From the NCBI RefSeq assembly GCF_003334355.1, contig NZ_QOWP01000027.1: a stretch of 54,484 nt of DNA; one strand, given 5' to 3'. The position numbers and the translations under genes were made by a program. Under the pieces are notes generated by a model, which did not search any database, had not been told where the DNA came from, and was given only the letters and a program-made list of their open reading frames with translations. How positions within the stretch are numbered: the first letter of the stretch is position 1; every line of letters starts with the position of its first letter. Origin of the DNA: Escherichia coli. Its GTDB lineage: Bacteria > Pseudomonadota > Gammaproteobacteria > Enterobacterales > Enterobacteriaceae. Positions 15,472 to 16,845 of this stretch are shown here, one piece after another.

Positions 15472-15649
15472 GGCTTACTTTCTCTGCTGTAATGGTATGG
15501 GCGTTTTTGTGCACGCAAATCCGGCAGTGACACAAGGTGAGGTATTAAATAGAGAGGGCGTGAAAGGGGCAAATTATTAATAGAGTGAAAAAATAATTAA
15601 ATTATTAAAGGGTGAGATGTCGGGCATCGTCATAAAACATTGCACGAAC

Positions 15650-15735
15650 CGTAGGCCTGATAAGACGCGCCAGCGTCGCATCAGGCATCGGCGCACAATT
15701 GCCGGATGCGGCGTAAACGCCTTATCCGGCCTACG
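15650..15735. repeat. REP pair in lfiM/lafK divergent intergenic region
   Basis: cgtaggcctgataagacgcgccagcgtcgcatcaggc…gccggatgcggcgtaaacgccttatccggcctacg. Confidence 0.85.
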
Positions 15736-15858
15736 GCTATAACTCATTGTTATTCAACAAATAATATTTTTATTATCGTTTAATTCGAACTTGTTAATCC
15801 CGCCGATGATACGCTTCAGAACATCCTGTTTTCTGTCGCTACTTATATCGTTCACCCT

Positions 15859-16845
15859 ATGTCTGAACTTATTGCAACTGCCGCTTCCAGCATTAACGCT
15901 TTTACTCTGGCAAAGCGTGTCGCCGCCTTTAACGTGCCGGTGCTCATTCAGGGCGAAACCGGTGCGGGCAAAGAGTGCGTGGCAAAATATATTCACACCG
16001 TAGCTTTTGGTGAAAATGATAACGCGCCCTATATCGGCGTGAACTGCGCAGCGATCCCGGAAAATATACTGGAAGCCACCTTATTTGGCTACGACAAAGG
16101 TGCATTTACCGGCGCAATTGCCAGCGTGCCTGGAAAAATGGAACTGGCGAATAACGGCACCTTATTGCTCGATGAAATTGGCGATATGCCGCTGGCATTA
16201 CAGGCCAAAATATTACGCGTATTGCAGGAACAACAGGTTGAGCGATTAGGCAGCAACCGACAAATTAAACTCAATTTTCGCCTGATTGCCTGCACCAATA
16301 AAAACCTTGAGCAGGAAGTCGCCGCCGGGCGTTTTCGTGAAGATCTCTATTATCGTCTGGCGGTTATTCCTATTACCATGCCGCCGCTGCGCGAACGTCT
16401 GAACGATATTATTCCGCTGGCAGAGTCATTTATTAAAAAATACTCCACGGTGCTGGTGAAAAATATCACCCTTTCAGAATCTACCCGCCGGGCGCTGCTG
16501 AATTACCGCTGGCCCGGCAACGTGCGCCAGCTGGAAAACGCCATTCAGCGGGGAATGATCTTGAACCGCGACGGCGTGATTTACCCGGATGTCTTAGGCT
16601 TGCCGGAAACGGACGTTGCCGATCGCAGCGAACTGCAATGGCCTGTTCAGCCCGCCGTACACATTGCCGAAACCAGCGATTTAGGCCAGCACGGACGAAG
16701 CGCCCAGTATCAATATATCGCCGACCTGATGCGTAAATATCAGGGCAACCGCAGCAAAATCGCCGACCTGTTAGGCATTACCCCGCGCGCACTGCGCTAT
16801 CGACTGGCCTCCATGCGCAAGCAAGGTATCGAAGTTTTCTCCTGA
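15859..16845 (+). CDS. lafK: Sigma-54-dependent transcriptional activator (AAA+ plus HTH, no receiver domain)
   Basis: 328 aa; Walker A GETGAGKE about 30 residues from start, GAFTGA-like motif (GYDKGAFTGA), Walker B (LLLDEIGDM), C-terminal Fis-type HTH; in-frame stop at 15781 upstream, so no N-terminal REC domain can be encoded. Confidence 0.88.
   Translation: MSELIATAASSINAFTLAKRVAAFNVPVLIQGETGAGKECVAKYIHTVAFGENDNAPYIGVNCAAIPENILEATLFGYDKGAFTGAIASVPGKMELANNGTLLLDEIGDMPLALQAKILRVLQEQQVERLGSNRQIKLNFRLIACTNKNLEQEVAAGRFREDLYYRLAVIPITMPPLRERLNDIIPLAESFIKKYSTVLVKNITLSESTRRALLNYRWPGNVRQLENAIQRGMILNRDGVIYPDVLGLPETDVADRSELQWPVQPAVHIAETSDLGQHGRSAQYQYIADLMRKYQGNRSKIADLLGITPRALRYRLASMRKQGIEVFS

Follow-up and report, generated by a model that had tools for sequence, protein, structure and literature searches.

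Why does lafK, the sigma-54 activator gene of the second flagellar system (Flag-2) of Escherichia coli, encode a protein without an N-terminal input domain, and do the repetitive extragenic palindromic (REP) elements just upstream of it have a part in this? We addressed this question in a 54,484-nucleotide stretch of E. coli DNA (contig NZ_QOWP01000027.1 of assembly GCF_003334355.1; hereafter the window), a chromosome segment with a complete Flag-2 (lateral-type) flagellar cluster, flanked by fadE/gmhA/rayT and dinB. Strain AZ147 is a near-identical relative, with 99.9% identity over the query. An initial annotation made from the sequence of the window had left two options: either LafK is naturally input-domain-free, or an N-terminal domain has been lost through REP-associated rearrangement. 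Our analysis favors an ancient origin of the short protein. We put at roughly 80% the probability that a complete, selected, receiver-less LafK is ancestral to the enterobacterial Flag-2 clade, with the receiver lost once before it, and that the REP pair came later and left the protein unaffected.

The protein begins almost directly with its ATPase. Pfam searches assigned Sigma54_activat (PF00158) to residues 6-172 of LafK (E = 1.3e-63), AAA_lid_14 to residues 178-246 and HTH_8 (PF02954) to residues 284-317 (E = 2.3e-8), and found no domain N-terminal of Sigma54_activat. Walker A starts at residue 32, and the initial annotation was thus accurate in describing an open reading frame (ORF) that starts about 30 residues before this motif and holds only the AAA+ sigma-54 interaction domain and a C-terminal helix-turn-helix (HTH). 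Arginine fingers (GRFREDLYYRL) and sensor II (WPGNVRQLEN) were also legible in the translation, and LafK is intact in every motif for ATP hydrolysis and sigma-54 contact. By domains and motifs, LafK is a member of the sigma-54 activator (enhancer-binding protein, EBP) class, activation itself being predicted. With the AAA+ domain at the N-terminus, an in-frame stop 26 codons upstream and conservation of this layout throughout its clade, it has the features of a receiver-less (type Ic, PspF-like) EBP.

The same region bears on whether the true lafK is longer, by way of an upstream start, a frameshift or a nearby separate receiver ORF. A few database entries of 460-520 aa, 63-72% identical to LafK and bearing receiver or ACT domains, would favor a longer gene, but these entries are assembly chimeras. 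We rejected all four such "homologues" (P0052, P0068 and P0094, 462-463 aa; P0080, 521 aa, with the ACT domain): in each case the N-terminus of E. coli NtrC, TyrR or another EBP was joined to LafK at FREDLYYRL or PPLRER, on contigs of 2-5 kb. Such chimeric EBPs in public metagenome protein sets could mislead surveys of domain architecture. In the window, the stop that the initial annotation had read at 15781 is present as a TAA, and the stretch from there to the lafK ATG is free of ATG, GTG and TTG codons. Tblastn of a receiver, the FleQ N-terminal domain and Vibrio MotY_L against the whole window returned nothing at E <= 0.01, leaving no receiver-like coding potential at that threshold. We consider the chance that the short gene is an annotation artifact to be negligible.

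The short form is shared well beyond this strain. The locus is present in 1276 of 5426 complete E. coli genomes; three alleles annotated by the Prokaryotic Genome Annotation Pipeline (PGAP), with 94-99.9% DNA identity, encode 328 aa from one common ATG, and in an alignment of four alleles the start region was identical and every allele had the REP pair. An orthologue search that covered 5.8 billion protein clusters returned ~100 clusters with 59-85% identity, with named members in ~14 other enterobacterial genera (Citrobacter, Leminorella, Enterobacter, Scandinavium, Pseudescherichia, Atlantibacter, Siccibacter, Budvicia, Pantoea, Regiella, Paramixta, Hafnia, Erwinia and Pragia). Nearly all of these enterobacterial orthologues are 324-348 aa long, with the same three Pfam domains and without a receiver. 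The loci of Citrobacter, Atlantibacter, Hafnia and Budvicia have a common gene order (fliM, divergent from lafK-fliE-fliF-fliG; 4/4), and in each an in-frame stop lies 2-23 codons before the annotated lafK start. A comparison of N-termini with other Flag-2 lafK genes was a check that the initial annotation had named; run here, it found alleles and orthologues collinear from a common start. This collinearity argues for a natural architecture rather than a truncation, and it is the naturally input-free alternative that has held.

A short gene can also be a dying one, and the ORF might be a remnant within a Flag-2 system that no longer functions in E. coli. Flag-2 is deleted or disrupted in many strains, with a frameshift in strain 042 (PMC6993521). 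The flhA-like gene lfhA is frameshifted in the annotation of AZ147 (43150-45242 of the AZ147 locus), and in strain ECZU08 a frameshift joins lafK to lfiE in a 446-aa product (P0009); we take these two cases as signs of ongoing strain-level Flag-2 decay. Moreover, no convincing Shine-Dalgarno sequence precedes the lafK ATG. However, all Flag-2 ORFs of the window are open, lfgC and lfhA included (the latter a 697-aa ORF at 9242-11335), the catalytic motifs and HTH of LafK are intact, and its cognate sigma-54 promoters and palindromes (see below) are retained. The dN/dS of lafK (Nei-Gojobori) was 0.06-0.10 among E. coli alleles and 0.04 versus Citrobacter. We therefore hold it improbable that lafK is a decaying relic; judged by these comparisons, the 328-aa LafK is the native, selected form.

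We then weighed the REP pair as a possible scar, left when a rearrangement associated with REPs or the REP-associated tyrosine transposase (RAYT) deleted the receiver of E. coli lafK in recent times. The initial annotation had located the pair to within 1-2 nt (15650-15735; here 15649-15736), 123 nt upstream of the lafK start, and a REP transposase gene, rayT, lies in the window (8521-9018). The E. coli lfiM-lafK spacer, which contains four REP cores, is 47-254 nt shorter than in four other genera, and LafK of Vibrio and Aeromonadaceae does have an N-terminal domain. Nonetheless, the corresponding fliM-lafK spacers of Citrobacter, Atlantibacter, Hafnia and Budvicia (434-641 nt, 29-35% GC) are free of REP cores while their LafK has the same short form and start, as it does across the ~14 genera, and the enterobacterial proteins are monophyletic, with 0-12 extra residues. 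Furthermore, the 3' edge of the REP pair coincides exactly with the upstream edge of a promoter block, CTATAACT-ATTGTT...AATAAT-TTTTATTATC-TTTAATT, that is conserved in E. coli, Citrobacter and Atlantibacter and nearly invariant among the four E. coli alleles. The pair thus abuts a conserved promoter block and not coding DNA, which argues that it was inserted into non-coding DNA on the 5' side of the probable promoter of lafK, namely TTGTTA-18-TATTAT, the only sigma-70-like site found in the lfiM-lafK spacer. No receiver relic was detectable: tblastn of the same three queries against six enterobacterial spacers gave a best E of 0.6, which is noise. With ~10 REP clusters in the window, the pair at lafK is not special either. 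A recent truncation is, in our judgment, very improbable, and for practical purposes it has been refuted already. Of the rearrangement proposed in the initial annotation, one part stands, in that a domain was indeed lost, as its retention in Vibrio and Aeromonadaceae indicates; the loss was ancient, however, and not REP-made.

In our preferred account, the REP pair would be a later, Escherichia-specific insertion into a long AT-rich spacer, just 5' of the sigma-70-like lafK promoter. The distance from the conserved promoter block to the lafK ATG is ~140 nt greater in Citrobacter than in E. coli, so the lafK leader differs considerably between genera. The pair itself is a typical arrangement of two inverted REPs, with copies in every E. 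coli genome and with rayT nearby; REPs are imperfect palindromes of ~35-40 nt, with hundreds of copies in an E. coli genome. Unit 2 is of the Y type and unit 1 is presumably of the Z type in reverse orientation; both are hairpin-forming, and together they make up one unit resembling a bacterial interspersed mosaic element (BIME) or naRNA4. Matches to the stretch occur in 5426/5426 complete E. coli genomes, with a median of at least 35 per genome. The Rfam model RF02564 (naRNA4) matched it at full length on the minus strand (15654-15731) with 91.1 bits against a gathering score of 59.5, compared with 58.5 bits on the lafK strand, and the pair folds as a single strand at -53 kcal/mol (z = -5.7). 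naRNA4, or CssrE, is an HU-binding REP-derived RNA. Effects of this BIME on lafK or lfiM expression are possible, through binding of IHF, gyrase or HU, through a cruciform, or through a naRNA4-like transcript of the lfiM strand.

Blastn-short located the ~10 REP/BIME clusters of the window at 5012-5145, 8342-8425, 9028-9219, 15649-15736, 22746-22826, 29633-29731, 31726-31760, 34878-34961, 38368-38404 and 40670-40769. Insertions were seen in Flag-2 gaps such as lfgD/lfgE and lfgF/lfgG, before lfgK and after lafA, and in the BIME after lafA the two REPs are separated by a long AT-rich linker. The other clusters of the locus lie at gene 3' ends or between co-directional genes, whereas the lafK BIME occupies the promoter region of two divergent genes, immediately before the probable lafK promoter. 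The gene rayT (yafM; plus strand), for the REP-associated tyrosine transposase (REP_Tyr_transpos, 178 bits against a cut-off of 80; "RayT" in PGAP), is directly beside the lfhA end of Flag-2, flanked by the BIMEs at 8342-8425 and 9028-9219. REPs have colonized the Flag-2 cluster since its entry into Escherichia.

The missing domain can be seen in Vibrio. We obtained the locus on chromosome 2 of V. campbellii by tblastn of PLSDB; it has the order fliM_L (minus strand), a motY_L-like OmpA-family gene, lafK and fliE_L-fliF_L-fliG_L. Over its whole length, E. coli LafK aligns with residues 123-438 of the 444-aa V. campbellii LafK at 47% identity, with M1 at residue 123; the identity runs from AAA+ to HTH, and the recognition-helix region is alike. 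Residues 7-113 of the V. campbellii protein match the full Pfam Response_reg model, if weakly (E = 3.5e-4). Substitutions affect both the acidic pocket and the phospho-acceptor position (EPNE...; LVSSNLPDM), with DYLLRPF retained, and on these grounds the N-terminus of Vibrio LafK is a degenerate receiver. The receiver is closer to canonical in a metagenome-assembled genome (MAG) of Aeromonadaceae, where flhB_L-flhA_L is followed by a 450-aa LafK with a clear Response_reg match and an Asp retained at the acceptor position, and then by fliEFGH. All proteins returned by a homologue search with Vibrio LafK were 437-468 aa long (from Vibrio, Grimontia, Enterovibrio, Photobacterium, Thaumasiovibrio, Gallaecimonas, Thalassomonas, Pseudaeromonas and Marinobacter). 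LafK of Vibrio and Aeromonadaceae thus has a receiver-like N-terminus of ~122 residues and, like E. coli LafK, is encoded directly upstream of fliE_L-fliF_L-fliG_L; E. coli LafK starts where their AAA+ domain starts. The motY_L-like gene of V. campbellii (2586-3638 of its locus), between fliM_L and lafK, overlaps the lafK start by 4 nt. At this place enterobacterial Flag-2 has only an AT-rich spacer, and the window holds no MotY_L homologue at E <= 0.01.

In a neighbor-joining tree (319 columns, 100 bootstraps), enterobacterial LafK formed a clade with 100% bootstrap support, in which every protein has 0-12 residues ahead of the position of E. coli M1. Its neighbors, LafK of Vibrio and Aeromonadaceae and others, have 115-144 extra N-terminal residues; one of them, P0137, is likewise encoded directly upstream of fliEFGH. 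FlrA and a FleQ-like protein were a distant outgroup. Other receiver-less relatives, with 45-48% identity, come from the FlrC/FleR position in flagellar clusters of the polar type; their scatter over the tree suggests repeated independent losses. Receiver-less EBPs of 336-350 aa hold this position, directly upstream of fliE, in L008, L009, L010 and P0209. In a Pseudomonadales MAG (L009, 2240-4053), a 251-aa HisKA/HATPase gene is followed after a 5-nt gap by a receiver-less EBP, making it a kinase without a receiver on the neighboring activator. A tblastn match in Aeromonas caviae (L012) proved to be the polar flrA-flrB-flrC locus and not lafK; we kept it as the FlrC/FlrA reference. For the enterobacterial lineage, a single receiver loss in the stem of Flag-2 is the most parsimonious reading of these alignments: the receiver-like domain, retained in Vibrionaceae and Aeromonadaceae LafK, would have been lost once before the enterobacterial Flag-2 clade diversified.

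LafK is required for class II lateral-flagellar expression in Aeromonas (PMC5013049) and Vibrio (PMC4481668, PMC3930126). To follow its targets here, we scored sigma-54 sites over the 54-kb window (TGGCACG-N4-TTGCW, GG and GC required). The three best -24/-12 sites matched 11 of 12 consensus positions, and all three are intergenic, at operon starts; the total of loose matches in the window was not above chance, and the evidence lies in the position of the best sites. Their positions agree with the RpoN sites of V. parahaemolyticus, predicted at flgB2, lafA and lafB and confirmed by electrophoretic mobility shift assay at least for flgB2 and lafA (PMC9817140), and with the LafK-dependent PflgB of Aeromonas (PMC5013049). 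Neither a -24/-12 site nor the palindrome described below was found in the E. coli lfiM-lafK spacer, and no -24/-12 site was found in the orthologous spacers of Citrobacter, Atlantibacter, Hafnia and Budvicia. The lack of a sigma-54 site in the lfiM-lafK spacer agrees with the LafK-independent fliM_L operon of V. parahaemolyticus (PMC3930126).

All three promoters are preceded by a palindrome, GCGGAA-N7-TTCCGC, perfect or with mismatches, which we spotted by eye and tested afterward; a blind search for shared 12-mers in the three upstream regions returned only the A-tract beside the -24 element. Two exact copies occur in the window versus 0.02 expected from shuffles. We then scanned one genome per species (100,044 species) for the composite pattern GCGGAA-N7-TTCCGC-N(35-55)-GGCAC-N5-TTGC and found 26 loci, versus ~3 expected for random sequence (298 Gb x 2 strands x 21 spacings x 4^-21; no control pattern was used). 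Nineteen of the 26 immediately preceded homologues of lfgB, lafB or orf309 within lateral-flagellar clusters, 17 of them in Enterobacterales (including Pantoea, Pseudocitrobacter, Citrobacter, Rahnella, Escherichia whittamii, Pluralibacter, Buttiauxella, Izhakiella, Intestinirhabdus and Rosenbergiella) and the remaining two in Vibrio rotiferianus and Grimontia hollisae. In the latter two species, lafB has the palindrome and the sigma-54 promoter signature as in enterobacteria. The dyad lies 39-42 nt from the promoter at lafB and orf309 (51 nt in V. rotiferianus) and 47-54 nt at lfgB, and orthologous lfgB promoters in five other taxa have a perfect palindrome at 47-54 nt. The N7 spacer varies freely between genomes.

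LafK is the only EBP in the lateral-flagellar clusters with the dyad, and most simply, therefore, the dyad is its enhancer: GCGGAA-N7-TTCCGC is a likely candidate. DNA recognition also appears to be conserved between receiver-bearing and receiver-less LafK. We found no published LafK binding site in the searchable literature, a search that left key older papers outside. One operon with a sigma-54 promoter and a perfect dyad of its own joins orf309 (25460-26388, minus strand) to the gene of an 814-aa glycosyltransferase (22837-25281, minus strand). The 309-aa product of orf309 weakly resembles FliB, the flagellin lysine-N-methylase (40 bits, short of the cut-off of 85), so the LafK regulon seems to extend to the modification of flagellin.

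How would such a protein be controlled? Without an input domain, LafK would be active whenever it is made, as are PspF or receiver-deleted activators of the DctD/NtrC1 type, and constitutive activity is plausible by this analogy. Since there is no input domain, control would reside mainly in lafK transcription, possibly with a partner; transcription of lafK itself would here not be sigma-54-dependent. LafK dimers would sit on GCGGAA-N7-TTCCGC, centered ~50-60 bp upstream of the -24 element, a binding that we infer from the conserved dyad. They would then assemble into a ring whose GAFTGA loops, with ATP hydrolysis, open the sigma-54 promoters of lfgB and following genes (rod, hook), of orf309 and the glycosyltransferase gene, and of lafB and following genes (cap, chaperones and the sigma-28 gene lafS).

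The protein might, alternatively, not be constitutive but gated after translation, by a partner protein or by a ligand of the AAA+ domain that replaced the lost receiver as input. Partner gating is known for PspA on PspF and HrpV on HrpS, and cyclic di-GMP (c-di-GMP) acts on FleQ/FlrA; the other well-studied receiver-less activators (PspF with PspA, HrpS with HrpV) are all so controlled. A second regulator is also present in the cluster: LafZ (38418-39260, minus strand) is CadC/ToxR-like, with an N-terminal winged-helix domain (Trans_reg_C, residues 25-97). Because this is a DNA-binding domain, however, LafZ more plausibly acts on promoters, and no PspA-, HrpV- or LafV-like gene was recognized in the window, where no systematic search was made. 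As to c-di-GMP, FleQ-type binding involves an Arg within LFRS and an Arg-Asn that follows Walker A. The first of these maps to M1 of LafK or ahead of it, and the post-Walker-A Arg of FleQ/FlrA, FlrC and Vibrio LafK is a Lys in the enterobacterial clade, which speaks weakly against FleQ-style binding; in the same alignment, the reference FleQ-like sequences also lack some of the c-di-GMP residues. On balance, we regard post-translational gating as rather unlikely.

We speculate that LafZ is a candidate upstream input to the Flag-2 hierarchy, possibly compensating for an input-free LafK. Tentatively, these elements could be joined in a wider scheme, one that we think possible but would not yet bet on: the dyad 39-54 nt upstream of the -24 element would be the LafK enhancer from Vibrionaceae to Enterobacterales, and all enterobacterial input would act on lafK transcription and not on the LafK protein, maybe via LafZ and modified by the BIME in E. 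coli.

Several points weigh against our preferred reading, in which an ancient receiver-less LafK activates Flag-2 from the dyad. The grouping of enterobacterial with Vibrio-type LafK had a bootstrap of only 33-67%, so that a gain of the receiver elsewhere, or a different FlrC-like ancestor, remains conceivable. Receiver removal inactivates NtrC-type activators rather than activating them. The palindrome could belong to another regulator, and its half-site conservation is partly built into the composite scan, which demanded exact half-sites. Aside from the sigma-70-like candidate, no promoter or enhancer was found for lfiM or for the lafK-lfiE operon, which leaves the top of the hierarchy unexplained. 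No experiment on E. coli LafK was found in the searchable literature. Finally, Flag-2 is non-functional in some strains, as reported (PMC6993521).

The coordinates of the features discussed are collected in Table 1. To the left of lafK, lfiM is the first gene of the divergent lfiMNPQR-lfhBA operon; to the right, lafK and lfiE are probably on one transcript.

Table 1. Features of the lafK region and of the putative LafK-dependent promoters, in window coordinates
Feature	Position	Strand	Details
lfiM (FliM-like switch protein)	14620..15471	-	ORF; PGAP "FliM/FliN family" in near-identical strains
lfiM-lafK divergent intergenic region	15472..15858		387 nt, 43% GC
REP unit 1	15649..15690		Hairpin arms; blastn-short; matched in every E. 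coli genome
REP unit 2 (Y type)	15700..15736		Hairpin arms; blastn-short; Rfam match; fold
Conserved promoter block	15737..15790	+	TTGTTA-18-TATTAT sigma-70-like site at 15747-15776 (promoter scan), probable lafK promoter
In-frame TAA stop	15781..15783	+	26 codons 5' of lafK ATG
lafK coding sequence	15859..16845	+	ATG start, 328 aa: AAA+ sigma-54 interaction domain, lid, Fis-type HTH
Walker A GETGAGKE	15952..15975	+	Residues 32-39, by translation
GAFTGA sigma-54 contact loop	16099..16116	+	Residues 81-86, exact motif
Walker B LLLDE	16162..16176	+	Residues 102-106, by translation
HTH_8 DNA-binding domain	16708..16809	+	Residues 284-317
lfiE (FliE-like)	16860..17201	+	14 nt 3' of lafK; opens lfiEFGHIJ
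Sigma-54 site CGGCACGCTTATTGCA	26424..26439	-	Upstream of orf309 (ATG 26388) and glycosyltransferase gene
Perfect palindrome GCGGAA-N7-TTCCGC	26478..26496		39 nt upstream of GG, orf309 promoter
Two-mismatch palindrome AAGGAA-N7-TTCCGC	28015..28033		50 nt upstream of GG, lfgB promoter; one helical turn further
Sigma-54 site TGGCATGGCGATTGCT	28083..28098	+	Upstream of lfgB (true ATG 28135, per PGAP)
Tandem palindromes	40824..40865		40824-40842, one mismatch; 40847-40865, perfect, 39 nt upstream of GG, lafB promoter
Sigma-54 site TGGCACGCCTTTTGCC	40904..40919	+	Upstream of lafB (fliD-like, ATG 40951)

As a discovery, the short LafK matters little: the gene, its activator class and the REP elements were known already, receiver-less sigma-54 activators are a textbook class that lists LafK, and the short architecture is the enterobacterial norm. 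Two by-products are of use, namely the candidate enhancer, which is conserved, and the difference between the enterobacterial and the Vibrio form of LafK. This difference corrects a blur in the literature over the LafK N-terminus; since LafK of Vibrio and Aeromonadaceae bears a receiver-like domain and enterobacterial LafK does not, results on LafK control in Vibrio need checking before they are transferred to Flag-2 of E. coli or Yersinia. A direct prediction is that expression of lafK alone should switch on the Flag-2 class II operons, which would test whether this "cryptic" second flagellar system can function. The palindrome, in turn, offers a concrete enhancer to mutate and a signature for members of the LafK regulon, such as the orf309-glycosyltransferase operon.

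Among known systems, PspF resembles LafK in form. Both proteins have the same three-part architecture and ~325 aa, with no N-terminal regulatory domain, and LafK residues 4-235 align with PspF residues 8-239. LafK is nevertheless not a PspF orthologue: it scored 236 bits on TIGR02974 against a cut-off of 443.55 and 204 bits on NF008622 against 529, and for no named NCBIfam equivalog, PspF, FlbD and FlgR among them, did it reach the cut-off. PspF is held inactive by PspA, whereas LafK has no known partner of this kind and none was evident in the window, where the search was not systematic. HrpR and HrpS, of the type III secretion system of Pseudomonas syringae, resemble LafK in being receiver-less sigma-54 activators in control of an apparatus of the secretion or motility type; transcription determines how much of them is present, and HrpV inhibits them. 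They act as a hetero-oligomer of two paralogues, whereas lafK is a single gene.

By descent, the flagellar regulators are nearer. The best structural match of LafK was the AAA+ domain of V. cholerae FlrC (4qhs, 254 bits), compared with 219 bits for FleQ and 184 bits for PspF. FlrC/FleR and LafK share a genomic position upstream of fliE, and in the tree LafK fell within the FlrC/FleR-like radiation, far from FlrA/FleQ. FlrC and FleR, however, carry a receiver that can be phosphorylated and work with a cognate kinase (FlrB/FleS); E. coli LafK lacks the receiver, no kinase gene is adjacent to lafK, and the protein is therefore not a response regulator of the FlrC/FleR type. FleQ and FlrA are not close homologues, as the FleQ-type N-terminal domain is absent from LafK and the FlrA/FleQ-like proteins form the far outgroup. 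In the literature, LafK has been listed with PspF and HrpR/S as lacking a signal-recognition domain, and LafK and PspF have been classed as type Ic EBPs (PMC3162934); on the alignments presented here, that classification holds in full for enterobacterial LafK and only loosely for Vibrio LafK. Overall, these sequence comparisons support the idea that LafK of E. coli is functionally a PspF-like, input-free sigma-54 activator and by descent a member of the FlrC/FleR-LafK radiation.

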